A stretch of DNA of 64,000 nt from a virus (lineage: Duplodnaviria > Heunggongvirae > Uroviricota > Caudoviricetes), in IMG/VR virus record IMGVR_UViG_3300043410_000565, positions 92,236 through 156,235 of that record; one strand, 5' to 3'. The translations under genes were made by a program, and so were the position numbers. This document shows, piece by piece, positions 25,719 through 50,637 of the stretch (positions within the stretch are counted from its first letter, which is position 1; every line of letters starts with the position of its first letter). The notes under the pieces were generated by a model. That model made no database searches. It was not told where the DNA came from and was given only the letters and a program-made list of their open reading frames with translations.

Positions 25719-25762
25719 AAATCGCTTGCCTTTAATTCCAAAATGAGCTATAATACTTGTAT
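25719..25762 (+). promoter_or_regulatory. Conserved early promoter P1 (AAATCGCTTGCCTTTAATTCCAAAATGAGCTATAATACTTGTAT)
   Basis: -35 TTGCCT, 17-bp spacer, -10 TATAAT. The roughly 45-bp block is shared with P2-P5. Confidence 0.7.
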
Positions 25763-25779
25763 TGATAGGAGATTTTATT

Positions 25780-27912
25780 ATGGAAATTCAGGCAACCGAC
25801 CTTTCCGCTCGACTGCTGGCAACTGAAAACCTTACGGTGGTTCGCAACAATGCACCCACCGCATCGTTTGACATCAAATCCCGTGTACTAACCCTTCCGA
25901 TGTGGAAGGACATGACCCCTGAGATTGAGGATATGCTCGTGGGTCATGAAGTTGGCCACGCACTCTATACCCTCGACAAATACATCAAACCGATTCAGGA
26001 CAACCCAAAACTGAAGTCGTACATGAACATTCTCGAAGACGTTCGTATCGAGAAGCTGATCAAACGCAAGTATCCTGGTTTGCGCAAGCGCATGAACGAA
26101 GGTTACAAACAACTCAATGACAAAGACTTCTTTGGTGTATCCAAAGTTGCTTCTCTTGACGCACTCAACCTTATTGACCGCATCAACCTGTACTTTAAAG
26201 CAGGTTTCCAGTGCGGTGTTAAGTTCGATCAAGACGAGAAGCCTTTCGTCAACCGTGCCGAGCGCACCGAAACCATCGACGAAGTTATCCAACTTGCCAA
26301 CGACATCTACACGTTTGCTAAAGAGCAAGCCGAAAAGAAAAAGCAAGAACGTGCAGCCGCAGGTGAAGGTGATGACGATTCTGAAGCAGATGAAGTTGAC
26401 TACCTTGATGACCTAGACTTGGATGGTGATGACTGGCAAGAAGAAGATAACGACAAACCCGAAGAAGGTGAGAAGTCAGCTAAAGGCAAAGGTGCTGGTC
26501 AAAATACAACTGAAGAAGACCTTGAGTCTGTAACCGACCGTGCGTTCTCTGAGCGTCTTGAAGAGTTGGCTGATCAATCTACTGAGTATCGCTATCACAA
26601 AATTGAGCCACTCGGTTTTGATCCAATCATTGGTTTCAAGCAAGTGTTGAAAGACTTGGACTTTGACTTCAACAACGTGTCTATTGGTTCATACTACCAC
26701 AACCGTGTTTATGGTTCCAAGACCGAAGAACAATTCACACAAAAGCAACAAGCTGCTGTGAACAAGTTTAAGACTGACTCTGTTAGTTCGGTAAACTACT
26801 TGGTCAAAGAATTTGAAATGAAGAAGTCTGCTCAGCTGTATAAGCGTGCTCAGGTTTCTAAGATCGGTTCTTTGGATATGCGTAAGGTTTTTGCCTACCA
26901 ACTCCAAGACGATTTGTTCAAGCGTGTGACTACTATCCCGCAAGGTAAAAACCACGGCATGATCATGTTGATCGACTGGTCTGGTTCTATGTCTGACGTT
27001 ATCGAAGATACCATCAAACAGGTTATCAACCTTGCTATGTTCTGTAACAAGGCTCAGATTCCTTATCGCGTGTTTGCTTTCACTAGCCAATACGTTGACC
27101 GCGACAGCGATGTTTATCATAAGCGTTACAAGAAGTCCGTTGAGATTCGTGATCGTTGGATGAGAGACCAAAACGATTCCGTGATTGATGCTGGTCACTT
27201 CAACCTGTTGGAATTGTTCTCAAATCGTATGTCTACATCTGAGTTCAATGGTATGATCAAGAAGTTGCTTGACCCTCGTGTTTTCTGGCACAAAGGTTAT
27301 GACCTTGGCGGCACTCCGCTGAACGAAGCATTGCTTTGGGTTTACAACAACGTTGGCGAGTACATGAAGAACAATCGTATTGAGAAGATGAACTTCATTA
27401 CTTTGTCTGATGGTTGCGGTGGTTCATTGCAAGCGTCTGGTGGTATCAGCCGTTACAGCTATGGCAACAAAGTTAAGCACCTCTTGCGCGACCCAGTTAC
27501 CAAGAAGACTTATGCTTTCGGTTACGATGCTGGTCAACAAACTGAAACCTTGTTGAAGATGATCAAAGACCGTTACGACATCCGCGCGATTGGTTTCTAC
27601 ATCTGTTCAAACCGTCGTAGTAGTTTGAATGCTGCCATCAAAGATAACCTGTATGGTTTCGCTGGAAACGCAGACAACGTTATTGATGAAATGCGCAAAG
27701 AGTTTAAGAACCAAGGTTTTTACTCAATGCAAGGTACTGGTCGCGACGATCTGTTCATCGTTCCCGCTGAATCGACTAAAATCGATGAAAGCGAACTGAA
27801 AGTTGAGTCTGATATGTCTGCTCGTCGTTTGGCTACAAATCTTGGAAAGTTCCTGAACACCAAGAAAACCAGCCGTATTTTGTTGAGCCGATTCATCGGG
27901 TACGTTGCCTAA
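25780..27912 (+). CDS. CobT-like protein with a C-terminal von Willebrand factor A (vWA) domain. ATG 25780 is preferred over the TTG ORF-track start.
   Basis: MIDAS motif LIDWSGSMSD, an acidic D/E-rich central linker, RBS AGGAG. It pairs with the downstream MoxR/CobS-like ATPase. Confidence 0.75.
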   Translation: MEIQATDLSARLLATENLTVVRNNAPTASFDIKSRVLTLPMWKDMTPEIEDMLVGHEVGHALYTLDKYIKPIQDNPKLKSYMNILEDVRIEKLIKRKYPGLRKRMNEGYKQLNDKDFFGVSKVASLDALNLIDRINLYFKAGFQCGVKFDQDEKPFVNRAERTETIDEVIQLANDIYTFAKEQAEKKKQERAAAGEGDDDSEADEVDYLDDLDLDGDDWQEEDNDKPEEGEKSAKGKGAGQNTTEEDLESVTDRAFSERLEELADQSTEYRYHKIEPLGFDPIIGFKQVLKDLDFDFNNVSIGSYYHNRVYGSKTEEQFTQKQQAAVNKFKTDSVSSVNYLVKEFEMKKSAQLYKRAQVSKIGSLDMRKVFAYQLQDDLFKRVTTIPQGKNHGMIMLIDWSGSMSDVIEDTIKQVINLAMFCNKAQIPYRVFAFTSQYVDRDSDVYHKRYKKSVEIRDRWMRDQNDSVIDAGHFNLLELFSNRMSTSEFNGMIKKLLDPRVFWHKGYDLGGTPLNEALLWVYNNVGEYMKNNRIEKMNFITLSDGCGGSLQASGGISRYSYGNKVKHLLRDPVTKKTYAFGYDAGQQTETLLKMIKDRYDIRAIGFYICSNRRSSLNAAIKDNLYGFAGNADNVIDEMRKEFKNQGFYSMQGTGRDDLFIVPAESTKIDESELKVESDMSARRLATNLGKFLNTKKTSRILLSRFIGYVA

Positions 27913-27944
27913 GCCTGTAGGAGTAAGGCTCTTGAGGTCTCAAA

Positions 27945-27988
27945 AAAGAGCTTTACTTTAATTCCAAAATAGACTATAATACTTGTAT
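27945..27988 (+). promoter_or_regulatory. Conserved early promoter P2 (GAGCTTTACTTTAATTCCAAAATAGACTATAATACTTGTAT)
   Basis: -35 TTTACT, 17-bp spacer, -10 TATAAT. Near-identical to P1 over the spacer and the region downstream of -10. Confidence 0.7.
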
Positions 27989-28014
27989 AGTCTGATAAAT
28001 TATGGAGAAATGTG

Positions 28015-29157
28015 ATGAGTGATGCCGTCTTTCAGCGTGAGTTTGAACTGAAACTCGATGAGATGTACCCTGATGTTAAGTCAACTGGTACAGTGAAGAA
28101 TCAAGAATTGCTTTCGGTTATGAAAGCACTTGGTACGACCAAACAACCTAAGTGGTTGATGGTCAATAAAGTCAGTCGTGGTTTGTATGCCATCCCTGGC
28201 AGTAAGTCTAATGTTGTTATGAAGGAAGAACCTGTGAGTTCATTTGAAGTTGATTACACGAACACTGATTCGTTGATTCCCAAGAAAGACCCTAACTTTG
28301 TTCCATTCGGTAATTTTACCGATCTTGAGAACATTATCAAGTCTCAAATTTTCTATCCTGCCTATATCAGTGGTCCAACTGGTAATGGTAAGTCTACGAT
28401 GGTGGAACAGATTTGTGCCAAGCACAAACGTCCCCTGATTCGTGTCAACCTGAACATGATGGTTGACGAAGAACAATTGATTGGTTCCAAAACCTTGCAA
28501 GAAGGCAACGTTGAGATCGTTGAAGGACCAGTCCTTATCGCCATGCGTTCTGGCACTACTCTGTTGCTGGACGAAATTGACGCAGGTGCTGCTAACACCC
28601 TGCTTTGCTTGCAACCTATTCTCGAGGGCAAGCCATACTACTTCAAGCTGAAGAATGAAATGATCATTCCAGCCAAGGGTTTTAACATTATCGCAACTGC
28701 CAACACCAAAGGTAAAGGTTCAGACGATGGTCGCTATATTGGTACCAACATTCTGAACGAAGCCTTCTTGGAGCGTTTCGCTGTTACGTTCAACCAAGAA
28801 TATCCTTCTGCTAAGATTGAAGGTAAGATTGTTCAAAACCTGATGACCTCGTACGAATGTCTGGATGAAACCTTTGCCGATAACTTGGTGAAGTGGGCTG
28901 ATGCCATCCGTAAGACTTTCGATGACGGTGGTGTTGATGAAACAATTACGACTCGTCGTATGACCCACATCGTTCGTGCCTTTGCGATTTTCAAGAAGCA
29001 AGACAAGGCTATCGAACTTTGTTGCAATCGTTTCGATGCTGCAACGAAAGCTGCATTCATCGACTTGTATGACAAGATTGCAAGCCCTGAGCCTGAGGTG
29101 TTGACCCCTGTTGCACCTGTGTCTCTCAACCCAGAATCGGACGAAATTCCGTTCTAA
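28015..29157 (+). CDS. CobS/MoxR-like AAA+ ATPase with an N-terminal wHTH-like extension
   Basis: Walker A GPTGNGKST, Walker B LLLDEIDA, sensor region TANTKGKG. The N-terminal 65 aa share the motif PxWLxxNKxxxGLYxxP with the 29245 gene. Confidence 0.8.
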   Translation: MSDAVFQREFELKLDEMYPDVKSTGTVKNQELLSVMKALGTTKQPKWLMVNKVSRGLYAIPGSKSNVVMKEEPVSSFEVDYTNTDSLIPKKDPNFVPFGNFTDLENIIKSQIFYPAYISGPTGNGKSTMVEQICAKHKRPLIRVNLNMMVDEEQLIGSKTLQEGNVEIVEGPVLIAMRSGTTLLLDEIDAGAANTLLCLQPILEGKPYYFKLKNEMIIPAKGFNIIATANTKGKGSDDGRYIGTNILNEAFLERFAVTFNQEYPSAKIEGKIVQNLMTSYECLDETFADNLVKWADAIRKTFDDGGVDETITTRRMTHIVRAFAIFKKQDKAIELCCNRFDAATKAAFIDLYDKIASPEPEVLTPVAPVSLNPESDEIPF

Positions 29158-29199
29158 AAATCGCTTGACTTTAATTCAAAGTTCAGGTATAATTAATGT
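29156..29199 (+). promoter_or_regulatory. Conserved early promoter P3 (AAATCGCTTGACTTTAATTCAAAGTTCAGGTATAATTAATGTAT)
   Basis: Consensus -35 TTGACT, 17-bp spacer, -10 TATAAT. Followed by a GGGG(N7)CCCC palindrome in the 5' UTR. Confidence 0.75.
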
Positions 29200-29244
29200 A
29201 TGGGGTGAAATTCCCCGTTCTTGAAAACTGATAAAGGATATATT

Positions 29245-29745
29245 ATGTTGAAGTTCTCTGCTCTTTCCCTCGCTCAAAAGAAGTGTGTTGTTGCTCTCAT
29301 CGAGCATACCCCTGCTCTTAAAAAGACTGGTCAAATTACGCTGAAGGAAGTTACATCAATCACTCAAGATCTCGCTCAAATGCGCGAGCAGGGTGCTATG
29401 AAGATTGGCTATCCTAACTGGCTGTTCAAAGCCAATAAGATCGAGAAGGGTTTGTATCAACTCCCAGTTCCTACTGCCGCAGAATTGTCTGCGTACCAGC
29501 AAGAAATGGATGCTAAGTTGAACCCTGTTAAGAAAGCCAAGGCAAAAGTTGCCAAGCTGGCTCAAGCGAAAGTTGTTAAAGCGAAGGCTGTGAAGCCTGC
29601 GAAGAAAGTTGCTGCAAAGGCAACTGAGGACGAAAGTGATATCAGTGGTTCTCGTTTGAACCGTATCATCGAGGAATCTGTTGAGTACGACCAAGACGTC
29701 GAAGACTTCAACGCTATCCTCCGTGAAAACGGCATCGAAGTCTAA
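29245..29745 (+). CDS. Histone-H1-like (Ala/Lys/Pro-rich) DNA-binding protein with an N-terminal wHTH-like module. ATG 29245 behind AAGGA is preferred.
   Basis: Central KKAKAKVAKLAQAKVVKAKAVKPAKKVAAKA tract. The N-terminal motif PNWLFKANKIEKGLYQLPVP is shared with the AAA+ gene. Confidence 0.65.
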   Translation: MLKFSALSLAQKKCVVALIEHTPALKKTGQITLKEVTSITQDLAQMREQGAMKIGYPNWLFKANKIEKGLYQLPVPTAAELSAYQQEMDAKLNPVKKAKAKVAKLAQAKVVKAKAVKPAKKVAAKATEDESDISGSRLNRIIEESVEYDQDVEDFNAILRENGIEV

Positions 29746-29751
29746 TTCACA

Positions 29752-29790
29752 ATCCGTGTAGGTATCACCATCGCCTACACGGATCATTTT
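29752..29790 (+). terminator. Stem-loop (11-bp perfect arms ATCCGTGTAGG / CCTACACGGAT, 11-nt loop) followed by a CATTTTCG tail
   Basis: Perfect inverted repeat immediately after the 29745 stop. Confidence 0.55.
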
Positions 29791-30383: not shown

Positions 30384-30385
30384 CT

Positions 30386-31318
30386 GTGAAAAAATTTATT
30401 ATGATTTTGGCTCTCTTTGCTACTTCTGCATTCGCCGAGCCTTCCTTCGATCAAATTCAATCCCTTATCGGTCAGCAAAAATACGCTGCCGCTGAACAAG
30501 GTCTTGAACAGATTATCAAGAACCATCCTAACTCAGCCAAAGCCTATTACTCAATGGCTCAAGCGCAAGCTGGTTTGGGTAACCAAGACAAAGCACGTTA
30601 TGCCTTAAACAAGGCAACTGGTTTAGATCCTGCTCTGTCTTTTGCTTCTGCGAGTCAAGTACGTTCTCTTGAAGAAGCCCTTACACCTCAAGTAAAAAAG
30701 ATCGAGGTGATTGAGGAAAGCCATTGGCTCAGAAATACATTTATCGCTTTACTTGTTGCATCTGGTCTTGCTTTGCTGTTTGCTTGGTATATCCGTCGTA
30801 ACGAAGACGAAGACAAACGTGATGGCAGCTTCAAACCTGTAACTCCAGTGAGCCCAACCCCTTCCCCTTACAAGGAAGAACCGTTTGAGCCAGTCACAGT
30901 TAAAAAGAATACAGTGTACAAGAAAGCTGAAACACCAACACCTTCTTACACCCCTTCGTATTCAACACCTGCTCCAGCTGCTCATACTACAACCGTTGTT
31001 AATAACAGCAACGATGGTCTTTTGACTGGTATGATTCTGGGCAACATGATGTCTGGTCACCACCACGATCATGAACGTATTATCGAAAAGGAAGTTATCC
31101 GTGAAGTACCTGTCAAATCTTATGAGTCGCCTGGTGTCCGCACTTCGTCGCGGGATAGTGATTCTATTAGCAGCAGTTGGGATTCTGACTCTAGCAGTTC
31201 TCGGAGTTCGTCTTCTAGCTGGAGTTCTAGTTCTAGCAGTGATTCCTCTTGGAGTAGCAGCGATAGTTCTTCTAGCAGCTGGGACTCTGGTTCTAGTTCT
31301 AGCGACTCGTCTTGGTAA
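30386..31318 (+). CDS. Secreted or membrane-anchored protein with a TPR-like N-domain, a transmembrane segment and a Ser/Asp/Trp low-complexity tail. GTG start.
   Basis: Sec signal MKKFIMILALFATSAFA|EP, hydrophobic helix FIALLVASGLALLFAWYI, and a C-terminal (S)nW repeat region. RBS AAGGAA. Confidence 0.6.
   Translation: MKKFIMILALFATSAFAEPSFDQIQSLIGQQKYAAAEQGLEQIIKNHPNSAKAYYSMAQAQAGLGNQDKARYALNKATGLDPALSFASASQVRSLEEALTPQVKKIEVIEESHWLRNTFIALLVASGLALLFAWYIRRNEDEDKRDGSFKPVTPVSPTPSPYKEEPFEPVTVKKNTVYKKAETPTPSYTPSYSTPAPAAHTTTVVNNSNDGLLTGMILGNMMSGHHHDHERIIEKEVIREVPVKSYESPGVRTSSRDSDSISSSWDSDSSSSRSSSSSWSSSSSSDSSWSSSDSSSSSWDSGSSSSDSSW
31136..31318 (+). repeat. Low-complexity coding repeat (Ser-rich with periodic Trp/Asp) at the 3' end of the 30386 gene
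   Basis: Reiterated tctagc/agcagt codon units encoding SSSSWSSSSSSDSSW. Confidence 0.5.
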
Positions 31319-31342: not shown

Positions 31343-32686
31343 ATGGAAATCGCAATTCTCCCTACCGTCCTAGCAGTACTGGCTATCGCTACTGTTCTTC
31401 TCTCTGCAATCTGGGTTGTTAACCTTCGTCGTGTTGTTTCAACCAATGAAGTTCACATTATCCAAAGCGCATCTAAAACCGTTTCGTTTGGTAAAGACCA
31501 AGAAGCTGGCAATACTTACTATGAGTGGCCAAGCTGGATTCCTGTAATTGGTATCAACGTTATCAAGTTGCCTGTGTCTGTGTTCAGCCTTCGCTTGAAA
31601 GACTATGAAGCATATGACAACGGTCGCTTGCCTTTCGTACTTGACCTTGAAGCGTTCTTCCGTATTGAAAACTCTAACGTTGCCGCTCAACGTGTTGCTG
31701 GTTATCAAGAACTGAATGCTCAGCTGTTGTCTATCCTTCAAGGTGCTGCTCGTACCATCCTTGCTTCTAAGACTATCGAAGAAATCATGCAAGGTCGTTC
31801 TGAGTTCGGTGATGCCTTTACCAAAGAAGTTAATGAGCAGTTGAAGGCTTGGGGTGTTACCACTGTTAAGAATATCGAGTTGATGGATATTCGCGACAGC
31901 CGTGAAAGCCAAGTTATCCAGAACATCATGGATAAGAAGAAGTCTGAAATTGAGAAAGAATCTCGTATCGTAGTTGCCGCAAACAAGAAGGCTGCTCAGA
32001 ATGCTGAAATTGACGCAGCACGAGAAATTGAACTTAACAAGCAGGTTGCCGCTGAACAAGTTGGTATCCGTACAGCTGAAAAAGAAAAAGCCGTTGGTAT
32101 CGCTAACGAAAAATCTCAGCAAGATATTAAGGCTCAACAAAAGGTTACAACTGAAAAGGCTATGGAAGTTGCCCGTGTTCAAGAAGTTAAGGCAGCTGAA
32201 ATTGCCAAGGACGTGAACGTGGTTAAAGCTGAAGAACAAAAGCAGACTGACGTTATCTCTGCTGAAGGTCAGAAGCAACGTACTGTGTTGGTTGCTGAAG
32301 GTAACTTGGAAGCTGAAAAGCGTAAGGCTGAAGCTGTGCTGGTGAACGGTCAAGCTAAAGCTGAATCCGAGAAGCTGTTGCAACTTGCCCCTGTTGAAGC
32401 TCAGATTGTTCTGGCTAAAGAAATTGGCGAGAACCAAAGCTACCAACAATACCTTATCACTATCCGTCAAGTTGAAGCTAACCAAGCTATCGGTGTTGAA
32501 CAAGCCCGTGCTTTGGATAAGGCTGATATCAAGGTTATCGCTAACAGCGGTACAGTGACTGGTGGTATTAGTTCCCTTGGTGAATTGTTCACCTCTCAAG
32601 GTGGCAGTAATGTAGGTGCTGCTCTTGAAGGACTTGCTCAAAGCGAAGTCGGCAAGCAATTGCTGGATAAGTTTGTAAGCAAATAA
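31343..32686 (+). CDS. SPFH/band-7 (flotillin/YqiK-like) membrane protein
   Basis: N-terminal TM helix and an SPFH core (FSLRLKDYEAYDNGRLPFVLDLEAFFRIEN...ILASKTIEEIMQGR). A long EA/K-rich coiled coil follows (flotillin repeats) with a C-terminal oligomerisation tail. Confidence 0.75.
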   Translation: MEIAILPTVLAVLAIATVLLSAIWVVNLRRVVSTNEVHIIQSASKTVSFGKDQEAGNTYYEWPSWIPVIGINVIKLPVSVFSLRLKDYEAYDNGRLPFVLDLEAFFRIENSNVAAQRVAGYQELNAQLLSILQGAARTILASKTIEEIMQGRSEFGDAFTKEVNEQLKAWGVTTVKNIELMDIRDSRESQVIQNIMDKKKSEIEKESRIVVAANKKAAQNAEIDAAREIELNKQVAAEQVGIRTAEKEKAVGIANEKSQQDIKAQQKVTTEKAMEVARVQEVKAAEIAKDVNVVKAEEQKQTDVISAEGQKQRTVLVAEGNLEAEKRKAEAVLVNGQAKAESEKLLQLAPVEAQIVLAKEIGENQSYQQYLITIRQVEANQAIGVEQARALDKADIKVIANSGTVTGGISSLGELFTSQGGSNVGAALEGLAQSEVGKQLLDKFVSK

Positions 32687-32688
32687 AC

Positions 32689-32717
32689 TTGACTTGTAGC
32701 TGATTTTCAGCTACAAT
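32689..32717 (+). promoter_or_regulatory. Possible sigma70-like promoter upstream of gene 45 (-35 TTGACT, 17-bp spacer, TACAAT)
   Basis: TTGACT at 32689-32694 and TACAAT at 32712-32717. The spacer contains the 7-bp hairpin GTAGCTG/CAGCTAC. Confidence 0.3.
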
Positions 32718-32748
32718 TCTACCTATACCTTTTTAATATGGAGAAATA

Positions 32749-35562: not shown

Positions 35563-35570
35563 TATAAATA
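35563..35570 (+). promoter_or_regulatory. T4-type late promoter TATAAATA directly after the regA stop
   Basis: Exact TATAAATA. It would launch a roughly 230-nt leader ahead of hsp20. Confidence 0.5.
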
Positions 35571-35576
35571 TTTTTG

Positions 35577-35807
35577 TCCCATCGGGATGGGAAGACCGTG
35601 ATGGCTGTGCTTACGGTATACAAAACAGCCACTAATTTGTCCCACCTTGGGACTGTTTGACGTTACAGCAAAAGGCGTCCGCCAGCATAAGCGATACAAA
35701 TGCCGTGCAATTGAACTGGTTCACGTCAGTAACCCCTGTATAAAGTAAGCAGGATCCTCTACGCCAAATGGGTAGAGAAATTTTTAACTCGCTTAATAGG
35801 AGAAAAC
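35577..35807 (+). other. Structured noncoding leader or intergenic RNA upstream of hsp20, with several GC-rich hairpins. Not a tRNA.
   Basis: Hairpins CCCATC-GG-GATGGG, TGGCTGTG...CACAGCCA-like, GTCCCA-CCT-TGGGAC and CTCTAC...GTAGAG. No ORF of 30 aa or more. Confidence 0.35.
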
Positions 35808-37414: not shown

Positions 37415-37440
37415 AAACCACCCTCTCGGGTGGTTTTTTA
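37415..37440 (+). terminator. Rho-independent terminator (AAACCACCC-TCTC-GGGTGGTTT-TTTA)
   Basis: 9-bp stem followed by TTTTTTA. Confidence 0.8.
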
Positions 37441-37445
37441 CATCA

Positions 37446-37490
37446 AAAATCGCTTTACTTTAATTCAGAAATAGGGTATAATTAATGTAT
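37446..37490 (+). promoter_or_regulatory. Conserved early promoter P4 (AAATCGCTTTACTTTAATTCAGAAATAGGGTATAATTAATGTATG)
   Basis: -35 TTTACT, 17-bp spacer, -10 TATAAT. The downstream ATG at 37489 lies only 6 nt after -10. Confidence 0.7.
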
Positions 37491-37698
37491 GAAGCTGATA
37501 AAAGAAACTACTGTTTGGAAAGACGTCCCACGTCAACCCAACCATACCTATCTCACAAGCGATAGTATGGACAAGATCTATGCTTACTTCAAGTGGCATA
37601 ATCCGAAAGACTTTGTTATGCTGAAGACACCTTTGCGTATTGACCGACGCTATCGTACCTTCAAAGTGCTCCAATCTGGAATTAAGGATATAAAATGA
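37489..37698 (+). CDS. Small early protein, hypothetical, probably translated from a leaderless mRNA
   Basis: 69 aa. The start codon coincides with the predicted +1 of P4. ATGA overlap with the ligase gene. Confidence 0.5.
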   Translation: MKLIKETTVWKDVPRQPNHTYLTSDSMDKIYAYFKWHNPKDFVMLKTPLRIDRRYRTFKVLQSGIKDIK

Positions 37699-38990
37699 AT
37701 TTGAATGCTTTCTTTGAACAACTTGCCTCCAATGCCTCTCGTAACTATAAGATTGAGCAGCTTGAAGCGAATCGTGATAATGCGACTCTCCGTGAAGTTG
37801 TGCGTCTAGCACTTGACCCTTTCACCCAGTTCTATATCCGCAAGATTCCAAAGTACACTCCAAATACAACTGGCCATGGTGCATCTATCGCATCCATGCT
37901 CCCTGCTTTGTATGAATTGCGTGAACGTATTAAAACTGGCAATGCTGCTATCGAACATCTTAAAAATGTTCTCGAAGCATTGAAAGAAGATGACGCAAAG
38001 GTAATGGAACGAATTATTCAGAAGGATCTAAAATGTGGAGTATCAACGTCAACCGCAAACGCAGTGTGGACTGGCTTGCTGAAAGAATATCCAGTAATGT
38101 TGTGCAGCCAGTTCGAGGAAAAGCTGGTAAACAAAATCAAGTTCCCCGCACTGGTACAACTCAAAATGGACGGCATGCGCTTCAACGCAATCGTTCGGGA
38201 TGGTAAAGTAGAATATCGGAGCCGAAATGGAAAAGAAATCCAACTGTTGGGAAATCTCGACGCTGACTTTATCGCTCTTGCTGGCGACGTTGACTGCGTG
38301 TTTGATGGTGAGTTGCTTGTCACTTCTGATACTGGGATCTTGGATCGCCAGACAGGCAACGGTATTCTGAACAAAGCCAACAAGGGTACAATTACCGCAG
38401 GTGAAGCCTCGCTGGTTCGTGCCACTGTTTGGGATGTTATCCCCTTCTTGTACTTTCAAGATGGTGTATGTAACACTCCCTATGGTACTCGCTTCAATTC
38501 GTTGAACACCCTGATCAACAAGGTTGAGCCTGAGAAGGTTGCTACTGTTAAGAGTTGGGAAGTTGAAGACTACGAAACTGCCAAAGCCTTGTTTGAAGAA
38601 ATGCTTCAACGTGGTGAAGAAGGTATCATTCTGAAAGACAAAGCAGGTATCTGGGAAGACAAGCGTTCTAAGACTCAGATTAAATTCAAGGGTGAACTTG
38701 AATGTGACCTGAAGATTGTTGGCATCGAAGAAGGCACTGGCAAGTATGCTGGTATGCTCGGTGCTATTCAATGCGAATCTTCTGATGGTGTTATTAAGGT
38801 TTCCGTTGGTTCAGGTTTTACTGATGCTCAACGCAAGTCCCTTGGTAAAGAAATCATCGGTAAGGTAGCAGCGGTCAAGTACAACATGCGTATCAGTAAC
38901 CGAGCAGGTGAAGAGTCGTTGTTCTTGCCTATCGTTTTGGAAATTCGTTTTGATAAGGATGAAGCAGATGCCAGCACTCAGATTAAATGA
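37695..38990 (+). CDS. 30: ATP-dependent DNA ligase (gp30-like)
   Basis: Motif I QLKMDGMRF (KxDG), motif V IEGIILK-like (EGIILKDK) and an OB domain. 431 aa. Confidence 0.85.
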   Translation: MNLNAFFEQLASNASRNYKIEQLEANRDNATLREVVRLALDPFTQFYIRKIPKYTPNTTGHGASIASMLPALYELRERIKTGNAAIEHLKNVLEALKEDDAKVMERIIQKDLKCGVSTSTANAVWTGLLKEYPVMLCSQFEEKLVNKIKFPALVQLKMDGMRFNAIVRDGKVEYRSRNGKEIQLLGNLDADFIALAGDVDCVFDGELLVTSDTGILDRQTGNGILNKANKGTITAGEASLVRATVWDVIPFLYFQDGVCNTPYGTRFNSLNTLINKVEPEKVATVKSWEVEDYETAKALFEEMLQRGEEGIILKDKAGIWEDKRSKTQIKFKGELECDLKIVGIEEGTGKYAGMLGAIQCESSDGVIKVSVGSGFTDAQRKSLGKEIIGKVAAVKYNMRISNRAGEESLFLPIVLEIRFDKDEADASTQIK

Positions 38991-41502: not shown

Positions 41503-41641
41503 TCAATATGGTATCCCGCTCCACGCTTGTAATGGTTATCGTCACGATGAGCATTGGTGGACTTGGGCTAAGTGGGTAACAGAAAACTGTGAACGACTTG
41601 GTACTGACGGAACCAAAGTATATTATAAGAGAAAGTCTTAA
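41489..41641 (+). CDS. Small ORF (50 aa) not in the ORF track, possibly a Cys/His metal-binding peptide
   Basis: ATG 41489 to a TAA that overlaps the gp43 ATG (TAATG). Sequence MEKVNQYGIPLHACNGYRHDEHWWTWAKWVTENCERLG. Confidence 0.35.
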   Translation: MEKVNQYGIPLHACNGYRHDEHWWTWAKWVTENCERLGTDGTKVYYKRKS

Positions 41642-44127
41642 TGGAATTTTACACAAACGTGCAAGTCGCTGGTGACAAAATCCTAGTTCGTGGTTACGAA
41701 CATGGACGACCTTACCAGCGACGCATTGATTTTATGCCAACGCTTTTTGTTAATTCAAAAGGTAGATCTAAATGGCAGACTCTGGACGGCACTTACGTTG
41801 ATGAAGTGCAGCCAGGGAGCATTCGTGAGTCGCGTGACTTCATGAAGCGTTACGATGGAGTGCAAGGCTTCAACGTTTATGGTCAGACCAACTACGGTCT
41901 TCAATACATCAGTGATACATACGACTATGATATCAACTGGGATATGGAACAAATCAAAGTCTTTACGATCGACATCGAAACTAAGACTGAAGAAGGCTTC
42001 CCTAACATTGTCACAGCCAACGAAGAAATTACTTTGATCACGGTTAAAGACCTAGCATCAAAGCGCATCATCACTTTCGGTGTTGGTCCTTTCGTTCATA
42101 ATCGTGATGATTTAGTTTACTGTAACTGCGCTTCAGAGCAACACTTGCTAAAAGAGTTTATCATCTGGTGGCAACAGAACTATCCTGACATCATCACGGG
42201 GTGGAATACTGACTTCTTCGACGTACCATATTTGATTCGTCGAATGATTCGTGAGCTTGGCGAGGCACTTGCCAAAAAGATTTCACCATGGGGTATGATT
42301 ACTGAACGCAAAACATTCATCAAAGGTAATGAAGAAATTCATTATGATATTTCTGGTATTGCTCAGCTTGACTATCTCGAGTTGTACAAAAAATATACTT
42401 ACTCCAAGCAAGAGTCCTACCGTTTGGATTACATTGCAGAGCAGGAACTAGGCGACAAGAAGAAGGAGAATCCTGGCGATACTTTCCGTGACTTCTATAC
42501 AAACCACTGGCAACAGTTCGTGGAATACAACATCCATGACGTTGAACTGGTTGATAAGTTAGAAGATAAGATGCGTCTAATCGAACTTCACTTGACCATG
42601 GCTTATCAAGCCAAGATTAATTATGAAGATGTTTACTCGCAAGTTCGTATGTGGGATGCGATTATCTACAATCACCTTCGTAAGAAGAACATTGTTATCC
42701 CGATGAAGGAACACAGCGGTAAGTCTGAACAGTTCGAGGGTGCTTTCGTTAAAGACGTTCAAGTTGGTTTACATAAGTGGGTTGTGTCTTTTGACTTGAA
42801 CTCTCTGTATCCTCACTTGATCATGCAATACAATATCTCTCCTGAGACTTTGTCTCACGAGAAACTCCCAGTCACGGTTGACAAACTGTTGGCTAAAGAA
42901 ATTGATACATCACACGCACACAAACGTGATATGACCGTGACTGCGAACGGCTGGTGCTATCGTAAAGACATCAAAGGGTTTATGCCTGAGTTGATGGAAA
43001 CGATGTATGCTAACCGTTCAAAGTTCAAGAAGCAGATGCTTGGTGTTCAACAAAAGTACGAACACGACAAAGGTAATAACGACCTGCGTAAAGAAATCAG
43101 CCGACTGAATAACCTTCAGATGGCTATGAAGATTGCTTTGAACTCTGCTTACGGTGCCATGGGTAACCAGTATTTCCGATACTTCGATATTCGTATGGCT
43201 GAAGGTATTACGACTTCTGGTCAGCTTTCCATTCAATGGATGGCTAACGAGTTCAACCGATACCTGAACAAGATCCTGAAGACTGATAACAAAGACTTCG
43301 TTATTGCCATTGATACTGACTCAATCTATCTGACTTTGGAAGACTTGGTTGAACACTTCGCTGGCGATAAAGATACCGATGGTAAGATCAAATACATGGA
43401 CAAGGTTTGCGAGGAAATCTTCCAACCGTTCATTGATAACACTTACCAGAAACTCGCCGAGTACATGAACGCTTATTCTCAGAAGATGATTATGAAGCGT
43501 GAAGTTTTGGCTGACAAAGGTATCTGGATTGCCAAGAAGAACTATGTGCTTAACGTGCATAACTCTGAAGGTGTTCAGTATGCAACTCCAAAGCAAAAGG
43601 TTCTTGGTTTGGCCATGGTTCGTTCTTCGACTCCAGCCGTCATTCGTAAAGAACTAAAGAAGTCCATCAACGTTATTCTAGATGGTAGCGAGAAGGTTGT
43701 ACAGAAGTATATCGCAGACTACAAGAATGAGTTCTTGACATACCCTGTTGAAGCTATTGCTTTTCCACGAGGTGTGTCTGGTTTGAAGCAGTATGCTGGG
43801 TCTCCGATCTATCAGAAGGGTTGTCCGATTGCTGTCCGTGCGGCACTACTATATAATCACTACGTTAAGAAATTTGGTATTGACAAGAAATATCCATTGA
43901 TTCGTGAGGGTGACAAGATTAAATTCGTTTATCTAAGAACACCAAACCCATTTCACGAAAACGTCATTGCCTTCCTGCAAGAACTTCCAAAAGAGTTCAA
44001 GCTGGATTCTTTCATAGACTACGACACACAATTTGACAAGACATTTGTAGAACCATTAAAAACAATTATTGAACCGTTGAACTGGCGTGCTGAGGAAACA
44101 GCATCCCTTGAAGACTTCTTCGGATAA
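41641..44127 (+). CDS. 43: DNA polymerase gp43 (family B)
   Basis: Exo motifs FDIET and YNIHDV, pol motif A DLNSLYP, motif C IAIDTDSIY, KKNY motif. 828 aa. Confidence 0.92.
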   Translation: MEFYTNVQVAGDKILVRGYEHGRPYQRRIDFMPTLFVNSKGRSKWQTLDGTYVDEVQPGSIRESRDFMKRYDGVQGFNVYGQTNYGLQYISDTYDYDINWDMEQIKVFTIDIETKTEEGFPNIVTANEEITLITVKDLASKRIITFGVGPFVHNRDDLVYCNCASEQHLLKEFIIWWQQNYPDIITGWNTDFFDVPYLIRRMIRELGEALAKKISPWGMITERKTFIKGNEEIHYDISGIAQLDYLELYKKYTYSKQESYRLDYIAEQELGDKKKENPGDTFRDFYTNHWQQFVEYNIHDVELVDKLEDKMRLIELHLTMAYQAKINYEDVYSQVRMWDAIIYNHLRKKNIVIPMKEHSGKSEQFEGAFVKDVQVGLHKWVVSFDLNSLYPHLIMQYNISPETLSHEKLPVTVDKLLAKEIDTSHAHKRDMTVTANGWCYRKDIKGFMPELMETMYANRSKFKKQMLGVQQKYEHDKGNNDLRKEISRLNNLQMAMKIALNSAYGAMGNQYFRYFDIRMAEGITTSGQLSIQWMANEFNRYLNKILKTDNKDFVIAIDTDSIYLTLEDLVEHFAGDKDTDGKIKYMDKVCEEIFQPFIDNTYQKLAEYMNAYSQKMIMKREVLADKGIWIAKKNYVLNVHNSEGVQYATPKQKVLGLAMVRSSTPAVIRKELKKSINVILDGSEKVVQKYIADYKNEFLTYPVEAIAFPRGVSGLKQYAGSPIYQKGCPIAVRAALLYNHYVKKFGIDKKYPLIREGDKIKFVYLRTPNPFHENVIAFLQELPKEFKLDSFIDYDTQFDKTFVEPLKTIIEPLNWRAEETASLEDFFG

Positions 44128-45779: not shown

Positions 45780-47133
45780 AAATTATTGTCGTAAGGTAAT
45801 TCCATTCCTAAAGCGTGAGTATTTTTCTGATCGTAAAGAATCGGTGATCATTAATGAGATCGCGGAATTCTTCAACAAATATAACAAACCTCTAACCAAA
45901 GATATCCTAGCAATTGAAGTGAGTAACGCCAAAGGTGTTACTGATAAAGAAGTTGGCGATATCGGTGAATATATTAAAACTCTTTCAGATGCGCCAGTCA
46001 ACGAAGACTGGTTGATGGAATCAACTGAGAAGTTTTGTAAGGATCGCGCAGTTTATCTGGCGATCATGGGTTCAATTAAAATCTTTGAGGGTAAAGACCC
46101 TTTACATAATCAAGATGCTATTCCTTCTCTCTTATCTGATGCTCTTGCCGTGTCTTTTGATAACCACATTGGTCACGACTACCTTGAAGACTTCGCCAAC
46201 CGTTTTGAGTTCTACCACCGTGTCGAGGAGAAGATTCCTTTCGATCTTGACATGTTCAACAAAATCACCAAAGGTGGATTGAGTCGTAAGACTTTGAACA
46301 TCGCACTGGCTGGTACTGGTGTTGGTAAGTCTCTGTTCATGTGTCACGTTGCCGCTGCTGCTTTAAGAGAAGGTAAGAACGCACTGTACATTACTATGGA
46401 AATGGCTGAAGAGCGCATCGCTGAACGTATTGATGCGAACTTGTTGAACCTATCCATGGATGAACTTAAAGTTGTCGATAAGGATATCTTTGAATCCCGT
46501 ATTGAGAAACTTAAGAAGAAGACGCAAGGTAAACTAATCGTCAAAGAATATCCAACTGCTTCTGCGCACTCTGGACACTTCCGTGCTTTGCTTGAAGAAC
46601 TTAAACTCAAGCGTGAGTTTGTTCCAGATATCGTGTTTATAGATTATCTAAATATTTGTTCCTCGCAAAGGATGAAAGCTGGAGCAAACGTAAACTCGTA
46701 TACATTTGTGAAAGCAATCGCAGAAGAGCTTCGTGGATTGGCTGTCGAGTATAATGTACCTATCGTATCAGCAACACAAACGACTCGTTCTGGTTATGCT
46801 AACTCAGACCCAGGACTTGAAGATACTTCAGAATCGTTTGGTTTGCCAGCAACGGCTGACTTTATGTTTGCTTTAGTTTCAAGTGAAGAACTTGAAAATC
46901 TAAATCAGATTATCGTCAAGCAATTGAAGAATCGCTACAACGATCCAAATTATTATAAACGGTTTGTGATTGGTATTGATCGTAGCAAAATGAAATTATA
47001 TGATGTGGAAGCATCTGCGCAAGAAGGTTTAGCGGATTCTGGTCACGTTAAAGATGACAAGCCTCTTTTTGATAAGAGTGGGTTTGGTTCCAGAATGCAA
47101 GCTGAACGTGATTTTAGCGGATTTAAGTTTTAA
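45736..47133 (+). CDS. 41: Replicative DNA helicase gp41 (DnaB family)
   Basis: The N-terminus aligns with T4 gp41. Walker A ALAGTGVGKS, YITMEMAEE. 465 aa. Confidence 0.85.
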   Translation: MRIEQQILSNLIHNENYCRKVIPFLKREYFSDRKESVIINEIAEFFNKYNKPLTKDILAIEVSNAKGVTDKEVGDIGEYIKTLSDAPVNEDWLMESTEKFCKDRAVYLAIMGSIKIFEGKDPLHNQDAIPSLLSDALAVSFDNHIGHDYLEDFANRFEFYHRVEEKIPFDLDMFNKITKGGLSRKTLNIALAGTGVGKSLFMCHVAAAALREGKNALYITMEMAEERIAERIDANLLNLSMDELKVVDKDIFESRIEKLKKKTQGKLIVKEYPTASAHSGHFRALLEELKLKREFVPDIVFIDYLNICSSQRMKAGANVNSYTFVKAIAEELRGLAVEYNVPIVSATQTTRSGYANSDPGLEDTSESFGLPATADFMFALVSSEELENLNQIIVKQLKNRYNDPNYYKRFVIGIDRSKMKLYDVEASAQEGLADSGHVKDDKPLFDKSGFGSRMQAERDFSGFKF

Positions 47134-47144
47134 GGAGAAACGAA

Positions 47145-48518
47145 ATGAGTATTGATGCTGGCAGAAATGTAAAAGTTGTCGTATTAGAATCAAGCGAAGT
47201 AACACCTCGCCCAGATTTGGTTGGTACATGGTTGGATGAGAATCACTACCATACGTTGGTTGAGTCTGACATGGACTTGTACCTACCACCATCTTGCGCC
47301 ACTGATTTGTCTGATGTTAGTTGTAACAAAGAATGTGGTGGCTGTAAGTCTGCGTTGAACGAAAAGAACATCGTGTTCAAGTTCCGTAAGAACTACTTCA
47401 GTGATGAAATGGTTAAGTCTGCATACGAAGGTCTTCGCGATGCAGCTACTGAAACACAGAACCGTGGCACTGCCGCTGGTCCACGTGGTGAGAAGCTACA
47501 AGGTCGTGATTGGGTTACTGCATACCAATGGGACATCATTGATGCCTTCAAGAAGGGTGCTGGTAACTTACTCGGCGAAGACCCAATTGAAGTCATCCAA
47601 ACTAAATATGGCGAAAACCGTGACCAAGCGTCTAACCGTGCTCAAGTCTGGTTGCGCGACAGCGTTGACGAAGCTGGCTTCCATTTCGATGATTGGGTTG
47701 AAACTACTCGTCGTAAACCTGCAGCTGAAGCATCAGAAGATGCAGCTTGGGTTGAGAACAATCTAATCTCTAAGACTACTTACGCAAACCCAGTGAACTC
47801 TGGCATTGCTGGTTGGTATGATCGTTATCCACGTATCCCTTATGGTCGTGCTACATCTTACACTGAGAAGCAATTTGATAAGTTCAAGAAATCTTACCCA
47901 TACCTTCAGCATCTGTCTAAGGCATTCGCTGAATTGCTACCATGGCGTTATGGTAACCAGAAAGCTGCAGCTGATAAAGTTGATCAACGTTTCTTGGTTC
48001 CAAACACTCCATTCTCTACAATCACTGTTAACCGTAACTTCCGTACAGCTGCTCACTATGACCCAGCGAACATGGATGATGGCTTTGCTAACATTTGTGT
48101 ATTCAGTAACTCTGACTCTTATAGAGGTGCTTACCTTGTTTTCCCTGAAATTGGTTATGCTGTTAACATTCGTCCAGGTGACCTATTGTTTGTTAACAAT
48201 ATGGCTGGTCTACACGGCAATACTGAGTTGATCCTTGATGACCCTAATGCTGAGCGTATCTCTATCATTGCGTTCTTCCACGAAGGAATGTTGACTCTTG
48301 GTTCTATGGAGTATGAAAATGCTCGTCGTAAGTTTGTTGACCACTGCAAGAACGATGTGAACAACCCTCACTATCGTCCACGCTTCAACGGCGTGTATGC
48401 TGGTATGTGGGAAAGCCAAGAATGGTTTGACTTCTGTAAGAAAGAAGTTGGCGAAGCTGAAACAATTAAGATGCATCCAGAAGCTAACGCATCTTCACTT
48501 GATGAGTTCTTTGCCTAA
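47145..48518 (+). CDS. 2OG-Fe(II) dioxygenase (double-stranded beta-helix) with a Cys-rich N-terminal region, possibly TET/JBP-like
   Basis: HxD (AAHYD) ... H (GLHGNTE) ... RxS (ERISIIAFF) in a DSBH arrangement. N-terminal C..C...C..CGGC cluster. Confidence 0.6.
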   Translation: MSIDAGRNVKVVVLESSEVTPRPDLVGTWLDENHYHTLVESDMDLYLPPSCATDLSDVSCNKECGGCKSALNEKNIVFKFRKNYFSDEMVKSAYEGLRDAATETQNRGTAAGPRGEKLQGRDWVTAYQWDIIDAFKKGAGNLLGEDPIEVIQTKYGENRDQASNRAQVWLRDSVDEAGFHFDDWVETTRRKPAAEASEDAAWVENNLISKTTYANPVNSGIAGWYDRYPRIPYGRATSYTEKQFDKFKKSYPYLQHLSKAFAELLPWRYGNQKAAADKVDQRFLVPNTPFSTITVNRNFRTAAHYDPANMDDGFANICVFSNSDSYRGAYLVFPEIGYAVNIRPGDLLFVNNMAGLHGNTELILDDPNAERISIIAFFHEGMLTLGSMEYENARRKFVDHCKNDVNNPHYRPRFNGVYAGMWESQEWFDFCKKEVGEAETIKMHPEANASSLDEFFA

Positions 48519-49201
48519 TGTGTGCCGTAATTGGAGCCTTGATCAAAAGTCCTTCTAGCAAGGACTTCGAAGCCCTGAAGCGTGTGTTCGTCGAATCAAA
48601 GATTCGTGGTATGCATGCTACAGGCTTGGCTTACATTAAAGGTGGCGATGTTATCATTGATCGTAAACCTGTGCCAGCCGACCAGTTTCCATTCGACTTT
48701 CCTTCATATGTAAACGAGGATGGTAACTTATATCTAATCGGACACTGTCGTTATTCAACAAGTGATTTGGAGTTTAACCAACCTATTGGTAATGATGGTC
48801 ATGCTATTGTACACAATGGTGTTATCACTCAAGAGCTTCCAGAGAACTGGAAAGCCAAGTATGGTTATAACTGCCAAACCAGAAACGACAGCGAGTTGAT
48901 TCAACACTCTAATGACCCATTGGTTGAGTTTGATGATATGTCAATGGCTGTGTGTGAGATAACATCTTGTACAAAAGAACTTTTGGTTTATCGTAACGGT
49001 AAGCGACCATTATATTTGACTACTCTGTCAAATGGTAGTATAATTACTTCTACGGCTGATATTCCTAAACGTGCAGGTTTATACTTACCAACGATGGAAG
49101 TTCCAATGGATACATACATTACATTTGACTCAGCATTAACTATGAAACTACAACGTGTCATCACTGGACACAAGGATCTACAGAATGTACAACAAAAGTG
49201 A
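48518..49201 (+). CDS. Class-II (Ntn) glutamine amidotransferase
   Basis: N-terminal nucleophile MCAVIG, then GHCRYSTSD...NQP, HNGVITQ and DSELI motifs. Confidence 0.7.
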   Translation: MCAVIGALIKSPSSKDFEALKRVFVESKIRGMHATGLAYIKGGDVIIDRKPVPADQFPFDFPSYVNEDGNLYLIGHCRYSTSDLEFNQPIGNDGHAIVHNGVITQELPENWKAKYGYNCQTRNDSELIQHSNDPLVEFDDMSMAVCEITSCTKELLVYRNGKRPLYLTTLSNGSIITSTADIPKRAGLYLPTMEVPMDTYITFDSALTMKLQRVITGHKDLQNVQQK

Positions 49202-50057
49202 TTTTACATACGGTATGGAGATAGAGTGGGGAGATGTTCCCCGCTCTTTTTCAATTCCAGAGAACCTTGGTTCTTGGGAATACTCCGAGCGTGACATTAT
49301 CAATTTGCGTGCACCATATGCAAACGTGTGCGCTGACCCATTAGGTGTTGAACCGCCAATGGGTGGTGAGATTAACACTAAGCCAACTAGAACTTGGCAA
49401 GAACAAGTTGATCGTTACTTTGAACTGAAAGAGTTATTCAATGAACAAGGTCATGACCCAACTGTTGGTGTTACTGCTCACACCCATATTCATTGTCGGG
49501 TTCCACGCTTGCGTGATGATATTGATGCTTTGAAACGACTAACCAAGTACGTCAAAGAGAATCAAGCTGCAGCTATTGAACACGTCTATGGCTTCTTTGA
49601 GCATAACCAGATGAAGGGTGCCAAAGGTTCTAAGATGTATCTCAAGTTTGATGGTGGTCGCCCAATGCCTGATTACATGAGCGATAACATTATCAACCTA
49701 GCAACTGACTTTGATTCTTTCATCAAGATGCACGCTGCTGGTAAAGATGGAGTATCAATGGGTCGCCCATTCCGCTTTGCTATTAACATGTATGCGTTGA
49801 AACATATTGATACAGTTGAGTTCCGTTTGTTCCGTGGCACGTTAGATCGTACTGAATTGGAATCATGCTTCCGCTTTGTTGAAGACTTCCTTGACGCAGC
49901 TTTGAATGATGGTCCAAGCGTCAATGAACTTATCTCTGAAAGAGGTTACAAGTTCCCTCCAATGCAATGGGACTTGGCTCAGTTCATAGGCTGGGAGAAA
50001 ACTAAACACCCAGAAGAACGTGGTAAGAAAGTGAGAACATACGTTGAAGTTGAATAA
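49185..50057 (+). CDS. Amidoligase-like (glutamine-synthetase-fold, PF12224-like) protein. ATG 49185 is preferred.
   Basis: N-terminal GMEIEW (GxExE), GGEINT, HTHIHC and TVEFRLFRG are reminiscent of phage amidoligases. Always linked here to the GAT-II gene. Confidence 0.45.
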   Translation: MYNKSDFTYGMEIEWGDVPRSFSIPENLGSWEYSERDIINLRAPYANVCADPLGVEPPMGGEINTKPTRTWQEQVDRYFELKELFNEQGHDPTVGVTAHTHIHCRVPRLRDDIDALKRLTKYVKENQAAAIEHVYGFFEHNQMKGAKGSKMYLKFDGGRPMPDYMSDNIINLATDFDSFIKMHAAGKDGVSMGRPFRFAINMYALKHIDTVEFRLFRGTLDRTELESCFRFVEDFLDAALNDGPSVNELISERGYKFPPMQWDLAQFIGWEKTKHPEERGKKVRTYVEVE

Positions 50058-50595
50058 GTGTACTCGCGATCAGTTCATCAAAGCTATCTCTGATGACAAG
50101 GCTGACAAGTTTGCTAAGACTTTCGTGGCCAAAGCAGACATGCAGGATCAGTGGGATGATTGTATCGGTGCCTTCAATGAAGAAGGTGAACTGATGGCTG
50201 CTATCATCACCACTATTTCTAAGCGTAAACCTTTCGTTGCTAACCTACAACTCCTTCACACCTTTGCTAAACACAGAGGTCAGGGAGCAGCCAAAGCATT
50301 ATGTGAAGCATCCCTTCGTCATGTTAAAAGTAAGCAAGCGTTATACTTCCGTGTATCATCAGAACCAGAATCAGTTGGTTTCTATGAGAAGATTGGTTTC
50401 AAGTTCTGGGGTAAGCAAAAGTCTGGTTGCCAGTTGAGTATTTTCCGAATTGACGGTGATACCTTCTTCGAGGGAGACTACGACTATACAGACCAGATGA
50501 TCAACAATGCGATCCATAAGAAGGGTAAAGGTGGGTGTGTAGAGGTGTTTGACCTAGTTACGACCCAGCAACCCCTGACTCTAGAAGGGTTTTGA
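50044..50595 (+). CDS. GNAT-family acetyltransferase-like protein. The start is a non-ATG (TTG) and uncertain.
   Basis: Motif A-like HRGQGAAKALCEAS. 183-aa ORF. Confidence 0.5.
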   Translation: MKLNKCTRDQFIKAISDDKADKFAKTFVAKADMQDQWDDCIGAFNEEGELMAAIITTISKRKPFVANLQLLHTFAKHRGQGAAKALCEASLRHVKSKQALYFRVSSEPESVGFYEKIGFKFWGKQKSGCQLSIFRIDGDTFFEGDYDYTDQMINNAIHKKGKGGCVEVFDLVTTQQPLTLEGF

Positions 50596-50637
50596 GGGTA
50601 TTTACTTTTATTCAAGAATATAGTATAATATATCTAT
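50593..50637 (+). promoter_or_regulatory. Conserved early promoter P5 (GGTATTTACTTTTATTCAAGAATATAGTATAATATATCTAT)
   Basis: -35 TTTACT, 17-bp spacer, -10 TATAAT. The spacer TTTAATTCAGAAATAG of P4 appears here as TTTTATTCAAGAATATAG. Confidence 0.6.

Follow-up and report, generated by a model that had tools for sequence, protein, structure and literature searches.

We analysed a 64,000-nucleotide stretch of a virus genome of the Caudoviricetes (IMG/VR record IMGVR_UViG_3300043410_000565, positions 92,236 to 156,235; referred to below as the window), in which a promoter-like repeat of ∼45 bp occurs five times. These five sites, P1 to P5, are probably early promoters of the T4 type, served by RNA polymerase with the primary sigma factor of the host and arranged as cassettes resembling the early-promoter stem-loops (PeSLs) of other T4-like phages. 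The sites share a sigma-70-type anatomy that extends well beyond the two hexamers, they are conserved at orthologous positions in relatives, stem-loops are associated with them across the family, and their genomic context is T4-like. All five lie in the non-structural half of the window, and none is found in the structural module.

The anatomy was read directly at all five sites after alignment on TATAAT, which begins at 25749, 27975, 29188, 37477 and 50624. From P1 to P5 the -35 hexamers are TTGCCT, TTTACT, TTGACT, TTTACT and TTTACT (TTTAC in three of five sites, TTGAC or TTGCC in two), and the spacer between hexamer and TATAAT is exactly 17 bp in every case. The spacer starts with TTAATTC in P1–P4 and with TTTATTC in P5, whilst T-17, T-1 and A+1 are present throughout, so that the predicted starts are the A residues at 25761, 27987, 29200, 37489 and 50636, 7 nt after TATAAT. 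P1–P4 also carry an A-rich, UP-like stretch around -40 to -44, which is absent from P5. By these features the five repeats would be strong promoters of the sigma-70 type. Downstream, the leaders of P1, P2, P3 and P5 are 19–45 nt long and contain GGAG or AAGGA, followed by ATG.

The recurrence of this pattern is far beyond chance. Allowing at most one mismatch, CTTTAATTC-N10-TATAAT gave five matches in the 64-kb window, all on the + strand, against an expectation of 0.02 (standard deviation 0.14), and five matches were reached in none of 100 shuffles. No sixth copy emerged from a position-weight scan or from a looser regular expression, both run across the same 64 kb. A generic sigma-70/terminator scanner reported 43 promoter-like sites where 39.7 were expected, and with it the five sites were indistinguishable from the background. 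An earlier inspection of the letters without database searches (the sequence-only reading) had located the same five sites and described them as near-identical. The family is real, but this wording overstates the likeness: over -50 to +4, pairwise identity is 35–43 of 54 positions among P1–P4 (65–80%) and 27–32 of 54 (50–60%) for P5. Likewise, the AAATCGC that it placed upstream of the sites is found in P1, P3 and P4, but is AAAGAGC in P2 and GGGTAT in P5.

When IMG/VR was scanned with the same pattern, at least 120 loci were obtained, from which 123 unique matches were used for position counts. The positions left free by the pattern show T, T, T or G, and A upstream (76, 74, 57 + 33 and 63%, respectively), completing the -35 hexamer, and the matches further display an A-tract upstream of this, G-13, and T-A-T at -1, +1 and +2. 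Since promoter features appear at positions that the search did not specify, most of the matches are real promoters of this type. No homologues of window proteins were found at 27 of the 47 loci with good motifs; at least three of these 27 (L020, L050 and L073) are small-ORF (open reading frame) or tRNA stretches on contigs of T4-like size (168, 174 kb), and one of these contigs carries the syntenic core block. A 168-kb relative has ten copies in a single 21-kb stretch of small ORFs and tRNA genes, of which six directly adjoin a AACCCTAC-loop-GTAGGGT stem; among the remaining four, two are situated between tRNA genes.

Orthologous conservation was followed from the CobS-like protein, for which an IMG/VR search gave at least 240 loci with 74–95% identity, 80 of which were kept for synteny. 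The gene order gp47-gp46-CobT-CobS-H1-like-o29821-MazG-(0–3 kb variable)-gp45-gp44 was the same in all 80. The promoter upstream of CobS was recovered in 65 of 77 loci with a strict expression, and most of the remaining loci have CATAAT as the -10 element. Among the 47 unique CobS-upstream promoters, T-29 and T-28 are conserved in 98%, A-26 and T-25 in 100% and T-24 in 79%; position -27 is A or T, -23 is G or C, and -22 to -19 are random. T-18, T-17, G-16 and G-13 are conserved too, A occurs in 68–91% at -45 to -42, and C-36 in 68%. The gp46/CobT and CobS/H1-like junctions of the relatives carry the same type of promoter (the former being the orthologue of P1), and in many cases a hairpin such as CCCTNCA..TGTAGGGTT immediately precedes it. 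The conservation beyond the hexamers described in the sequence-only reading is confirmed in orthologues, and the extra conserved positions, namely G-37, C-36, TTWATTS at -29 to -23, T-17 and G-13, are under purifying selection throughout the clade.

The same comparison alters the view of the genes downstream. Each of the five promoters does point at a start codon, as had been proposed, but the description of all their targets as accessory genes does not hold. As their order is the same in 80 of 80 loci, CobT, CobS and the H1-like gene belong to the core of the clade; the ligase and the small ORF preceding it are widespread in relatives (at least 598 ligase-bearing IMG/VR loci); and only the GIY-YIG gene, found in 15 relatives and always inside one module, fits that label.

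A further suggestion of the sequence-only reading was recent duplication of promoter–gene cassettes. The sites would then resemble each other through such duplication, or through mobility of cassettes within the genome, and not through selection on promoter function. There is some likeness of this kind. P1 and P2 share 13 of 16 otherwise free positions, and P3 and P4 share 11 of 16; in one relative (L122) P2 and P3 are nearly identical; and within genomes the P2–P3 identity at free positions (16.7 of 34) exceeds that of shuffled pairings (14.9 of 34; 47 genomes), although this comparison is confounded by the kinship of the genomes. PeSL mini-circles are also documented in RB49 and phi1 (PMC2839356). 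Nevertheless, the same genes and promoters occupy the same positions in 80 relatives in which CobS identity falls to 75%, every lineage conserves the same positions whilst their neighbours are randomised, and none of the 80 loci lacks a cassette at P1–P3 with a clean junction at the repeats. Recent duplication was rejected because the promoters are conserved at these orthologous, syntenic positions, and we regard it as very improbable as the source of the similarity. The data fit old promoters with some gene conversion among them.

Stem-loops accompany the promoters across the family. The mean folding energy of the 45 nt preceding the promoter is -9.5 kcal/mol over 265 unique copies, compared with -6.6 and -4.7 kcal/mol for controls of equal GC content, and folds of -12 kcal/mol or below are found in 30% of the copies as against 4% and 1% of the controls. 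In the window itself the stem-loop is clear at P4, moderate at P1 and P3, and not significant at P2 and P5.

The window covers the core of a T4-like myovirus; it encodes homologues of gp17–gp23, gp41–gp47, RegA and UvsX, and all its genes are on the + strand. In IMG/VR, sample 3300047560 contains a fragment (L201) with 100% identity. PHROG and Pfam scans identified gp47, gp46, the CobT-like protein (phrog_459), the CobS-like AAA+ protein, gp45, gp44, gp62, RegA, Hsp20, an ATP-dependent ligase, UvsX and gp41. Lying between the exonuclease gene and the thioredoxin/UvsX genes, the ORF at 41641-44127 is taken from this location to be the DNA polymerase (gp43); by eye, further translations resemble structural proteins such as terminase, sheath and portal. 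The major capsid protein (gp23 homologue) is 63% identical to the proteins of cyanomyoviruses and of the OM43 phage Melnitz. A megablast of 20 kb against INPHARED revealed no close isolate, the sole match being a 240-bp patch with 79% identity to Vibrio phages, located inside the SPFH gene described below. Rfam and tRNA scans of the window gave no matches.

A gp55-type late sigma factor is encoded at 22374..22931 on the + strand (phrog_234, E = 1.7e-59), which identifies the phage as T4-like and sets its late promoter class apart from P1–P5. The T4 late promoter TATAAATA occurs six times on the + strand of the window, four of them in intergenic gaps (5571, 16731, 19236 and 35563) that precede a baseplate gene, a scaffold gene, the 19249 ORF (these three being structural) and Hsp20. 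Because TATAAATA stands in intergenic gaps of a genome with a gp55 gene, these matches indicate a T4-like late programme. In a T4-like phage a class such as P1–P5 is called early, and the early label given in the sequence-only reading would hold by this analogy. A scan of bacterial genomes with TTKACTTTAATTC-N10-TATAAT for a clue to the host returned scattered single matches, mostly in metagenome-assembled genomes of AT-rich Firmicutes, and no bacterial lineage with several copies.

A second promoter class in the same genomes throws light on the spacer block. The 53 unique promoters upstream of gp45 read AAATAAATTTGNC-N17-TATAAT followed by a conserved TATACATAGTA; they carry AAATAAAT-TTGNC with an A-rich stretch after the -35, and TTWAWT is present in only one of the 53. 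The copy in the window, at 32687-32748, has TTGACT-N17-TACAAT and overlaps a hairpin. As this class is without it, the TTWATT block is not a general need of the sigma-70-type promoters of these phages, and the clade has, judging by the conserved flanks, two different sigma-70-like classes in addition to the late class.

This class specificity raises the question of whether the block is a protein-binding site. P1–P5 would then be factor-dependent, TTWATTS (possibly with the GC at -37/-36) being the site of a phage-encoded or virion-injected protein which activates these promoters or shuts them off, and which would thereby define a temporal class apart from the gp45 type, a MotA-independent counterpart of the early/middle switch of T4. 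Such a dependence would agree with a block as strongly conserved as the hexamers in the 47 orthologues and missing from gp45-upstream promoters despite their good hexamers; moreover, the mechanism by which T4 early promoters are shut off is still unknown (PMC2988021), and marine T4-like phages are without identifiable MotA-type middle promoters (PMC9004378). We nevertheless consider it unlikely. Sigma-70 polymerase without help would already find hexamers, spacing and a start site close to its consensus, the window proteins yielded no candidate factor, T4 early promoters share TTTACTTT without any known factor, and an AT-rich stretch beside the -35 could act through DNA shape alone, by which the spacer block could improve binding. 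It is accordingly a tentative proposal that TTWATTS is an operator for a phage-encoded or injected protein that switches one of two sigma-70-type classes in a presumably MotA-less T4-like clade; were it true, it would represent a new way of timing early versus delayed-early transcription.

The sequence-only reading had also compared the upstream part of the repeat with a MotA box, so that the sites would be middle promoters activated by MotA and AsiA through sigma appropriation, with CGCTTTAC as the box. In T4 this box, (a/t)(a/t)(a/t)TGCTTtA, has its centre at -30 and is 11–13 bp away from the -10 element (PMC1524935), and the GCTT(T/G)A of P1–P5 does resemble its core, TGCTTtA; a GCTT core and a sigma-70 -10 element are thus common to both kinds of promoter. 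The GCTTKA found here, however, occupies -37 to -32 (with GCTT at -37 to -34 instead of -30 to -27), is separated from TATAAT by 19 bp, and shares positions with a proper, canonical -35 hexamer at 17 bp, whereas middle promoters have no -35. Those window proteins that were scanned against PHROGs gave no match to MotA or AsiA, and among related marine T4-like phages Melnitz and the cyanophages are without identifiable middle promoters (PMC9004378). The MotA box was rejected because its position and spacing are wrong, and the chance that these are middle promoters of the MotA/AsiA type appears negligible.

The individual units, all on the + strand, show how the parts are assembled. At P1 a stem-loop (25692..25714, AACCCCT-N9-AGGGGTT) spans the gp46 stop codon and is without a U-run; a fold of -11.4 kcal/mol is computed for the 45 nt that precede the -35, and the hairpin resembles the AACCCTAC..GTAGGGTT hairpins of the clade. 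The promoter (25711..25761, corresponding to -50 to +1) comprises the A-rich AAGAAATCGC, the -35 at 25726-25731, TTAATTC at 25732-25738 and the -10 at 25749-25754, and leads through a 19-nt leader with GGAG to the ATG at 25780 of the CobT-like gene (25780-27912). In the relatives, a motif TAAGTTGTTGATTTTACAGGGG recurs at gene ends before a hairpin and promoter (L127, L142, L160, L176, L182 and others), and a related sequence, CCCCTTGATTCTACAGGGG, is found at 25696-25712 in the P1 region.

P2 is preceded by a weak stem-loop (27912..27930, AGCCT-N9-AGGCT) that overlaps the 3′ end of the CobT-like gene (stop codon 27910-27912); the upstream fold is -11.5 kcal/mol, and with z = -0.4 the stem-loop is not significant alone. 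The promoter (27937..27987) has the A-tract CAAAAAAGAGC, the -35 at 27952-27957, TTAATTC at 27958-27964 and TATAAT at 27975-27980, and the CobS-like AAA+ gene (28015-29157) follows after a GGAG leader, with its ATG at 28015. At P3 the stem-loop (29133..29155, AGAA-CGGA..UCCG-UUCU; upstream fold -7.0 kcal/mol, z = -1.6) lies within the 3′ end of CobS, up to the stop codon at 29155-29157. Here the promoter (29150..29200) has AAAAATCGC, the -35 at 29165-29170, TTAATTC at 29171-29177 and TATAAT at 29188-29193, and a 45-nt leader extends to the ATG at 29245 of the Lys/Ala-rich H1-like gene (29245-29745). Directly after the predicted start this leader contains a hairpin (29202-29216, GGGGTGAAATTCCCC), which close relatives (L122–L124) keep with different stems (GGAATTGGAAATTCC, GGAAAGTCAAGTTCC and GGAATTGGAAGTTCC); its retention despite these changes points to a stem-loop with a function at the 5′ end of the H1-like mRNA.

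P4 has a canonical intrinsic terminator upstream (37415..37439, AAACCACCC-TCTC-GGGTGGTTT), with a 9-bp stem and a T-run. The upstream fold is -14.0 kcal/mol; the terminator has z = -2.7, is matched in stability by one of 200 shuffles, and is conserved in close relatives. The promoter (37439..37489) again has AAAAATCGC, followed by the -35 at 37454-37459, TTAATTC at 37460-37466 and TATAAT at 37477-37482. Because transcription is predicted to begin with the A of the start codon ATG at 37489, the mRNA of the 69-aa ORF beginning there (37489-37698) is predicted to be leaderless. The ORF overlaps the start of the ligase gene (37695-38990), as the small gene 30.1 does in T4. At least 12 distinct relatives preserve the 6-nt distance from TATAAT to ATG though the sequence of these 6 nt varies; in distant relatives the interval between o37090 and the ligase contains 0.3–1.2 kb of other ORFs, to which the 69-aa ORF is translationally coupled instead of being leaderless. 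With a distance from o37090 to the ligase of between 95 bp and ∼1.2 kb among relatives, the P4 junction is an indel hotspot.

P5 is the most diverged copy. A weak possible stem-loop (50570..50593) in the 3′ end of the GNAT gene is unsupported alone (upstream fold -11.1 kcal/mol, z = +0.5). The promoter (50586..50636), without an A-tract, has the -35 at 50601-50606, TTTATTC at 50607-50613 and TATAAT at 50624-50629, and the GIY-YIG-like gene (50657-51958) begins after an AAGGA leader with the ATG at 50657. The promoter is conserved in three relatives (L281–L283), present as a variant in L284–L288 and L292, and absent in L290–L291.

P5 stands in the middle of what looks like a cluster of DNA base hypermodification genes (47145-53994). 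The cluster contains a Tet/JBP 2-oxoglutarate oxygenase (PF12851), a glutamine amidotransferase, an ORF without assigned function, the GNAT gene, the GIY-YIG-like gene, an amino acid:DNA transferase (ADDT, PF18724) and P-loop nucleotide kinase 3 (PF18751), and is kept as a block in only ∼15 IMG/VR loci. The GIY-YIG-like gene, which the sequence-only reading also called ParB-like, had no Pfam match at E <= 0.01.

Other features of the window were noted in passing. Two non-coding gaps are unusually long: one of 245 nt between regA and Hsp20 (35563-35807), which folds better than its shuffles (z = -2.3), and one of 138 nt before the DNA polymerase gene (41503-41640; z = -1.8). Neither has an Rfam match, and the latter might function in translational control, as the operator of T4 gp43 does. 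In the 170-bp gap before gp55 (22204-22373) there is a forward TTGCCT-N17-TATAAT at 22307-22335 and a reverse-strand TTGCCT-N17-GATAAT (22260-22232), though the window holds no gene on the - strand. A TPR/Ser-rich secreted protein (30386-31318) and an SPFH/Band-7 protein (31343-32686) occupy the slot between MazG and gp45, which ranges from ∼75 bp to 3 kb among the loci L121–L200; both genes are absent from most relatives. At the start of the structural region, 78-698 and 702-1679 are adjacent paralogous ORFs, very rich in Cys and Gly, with a repeated CxxC-like spacing.

If P1–P5 are T4-type early promoters in PeSL-like cassettes, unmodified host holoenzyme would bind the sites right after DNA entry. 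Each cassette would comprise, in order, a stem-loop or terminator, an A-rich UP-like stretch, TTKNCT, the 17-bp spacer, TATAAT, an A/T-rich discriminator and T(-1)A(+1), with the start followed by a short leader carrying a Shine-Dalgarno sequence and ATG, or at P4 by the ATG itself as the predicted start. The upstream hairpin would shield each unit from read-through, which is clear for P4 alone. Each promoter would serve its own unit: the CobT-like gene, the CobS-like gene, the H1-like gene with the genes that follow it, the small ORF with the ligase and, for P5, the second half of the DNA-modification cluster. We infer that the extra conserved positions most likely tune polymerase binding or mark the promoter class, and that the ∼45-bp repeats are probably also homology patches for recombination between cassettes.

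As biology this is expected for a T4-like phage. Its use lies in a promoter model with which transcription units can be annotated in a large uncultured clade of T4-like phages of ∼160–175 kb, and in the extension of PeSL-type cassettes to that clade. With two sigma-70-like classes and a late class, the ordering of pre-replicative genes without MotA/AsiA becomes testable, and the spacer block offers a clean target for mutagenesis.

Among the closest known counterparts are the early promoters of T4, described as an ‘uber’ UP/-35/TGn/-10 class with additional consensus regions in alignments (Hinton 2010, PMC2988021). In T4-like phages the early -35 reads GTTTAC at -36 to -31, with G or T at -33 and an A-rich -40 to -44 (Nolan 2006, PMC1524935). 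P1–P5 agree with this class in the A-rich, UP-like region at about -45 to -40 and in a consensus that extends beyond the hexamers, and partly in the -35, which has TTTAC in three of the five sites and T or G at -33; both are sigma-70-dependent by sequence and lie upstream of non-structural and tRNA genes. The best of the 12 matches in T4 share TTTACTTT, T-17 and G-13 with the P1–P5 class, whilst the conserved block here runs to -23 (AATTC) and T4, in this small sample, is variable from -27. The RefSeq T4 record has no annotated promoter features, and no usable result came from a literature search on early-promoter motifs of cyanophages.

Several points count against the assignment to this class and to PeSL-like cassettes. 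The extended -10 TG at -15/-14, which most T4 early promoters have, is found in none of the five sites, where T-17 and G-13 are conserved instead, and T4 has G-36 where these promoters have C-36 with G-37. The comparison with T4 is only rough, since it rests on just 12 regular-expression matches in 129 kb of NC_000866, several of them probably not real promoters. Early timing is taken from the analogy with T4, and the fit to the sigma factor of the host is assumed. Only P4 has a convincing terminator in the window, the hairpins of P2 and P5 being no better than shuffled sequence. The junctions at P1–P3 are invariant and without indels among the 80 relatives, so that no shuffling role like that of PeSLs can be seen at them. 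Finally, the within-genome comparison of P2 and P3 is confounded by the kinship of the genomes.

PeSLs provide the second comparison. As described in the literature (Arbiol 2010, PMC2839356; Comeau 2014, PMC4122927), a PeSL consists of a sigma-70-like early promoter with a stem-loop immediately before it and a Shine-Dalgarno sequence and ATG after it; PeSLs are repeated through the genome, their consensus differs between phage pairs, they are sites of homologous exchange, and those in the core adjoin plastic genes. The cassettes here differ in that three of the five stem-loops in the window are weak and that P1–P3 flank genes of the clade core. They also have a spacer block, TTWATTS, conserved like the hexamers, of which the text consulted in PMC4122927 and the passages searched in PMC2839356 make no mention. 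The stem itself is AACCC(C)T..AGGG(G)TT, as compared with GGGG..CCCC in the PeSLs of RB49 and A3-4G3..C3T3-4 in those of nt-1. Other features are shared with the PeSLs of RB49/phi1, T4/PST and KVP40/nt-1. The order of stem-loop, AT-rich stretch, -35, N17, -10, Shine-Dalgarno sequence and ATG is the same, and in both cases there are many conserved copies per genome (here five in the core window and ten in the 21-kb small-ORF and tRNA region of the relative), with a consensus proper to each phage pair. Copies in the core stand beside non-essential genes and flank single genes in tandem, as in P1-CobT-P2-CobS-P3, and there are hints of exchange between copies. Of the junctions here, that of P4 is a hotspot for indels, P5 lies within a rare module, and those of P1–P3 are invariant.

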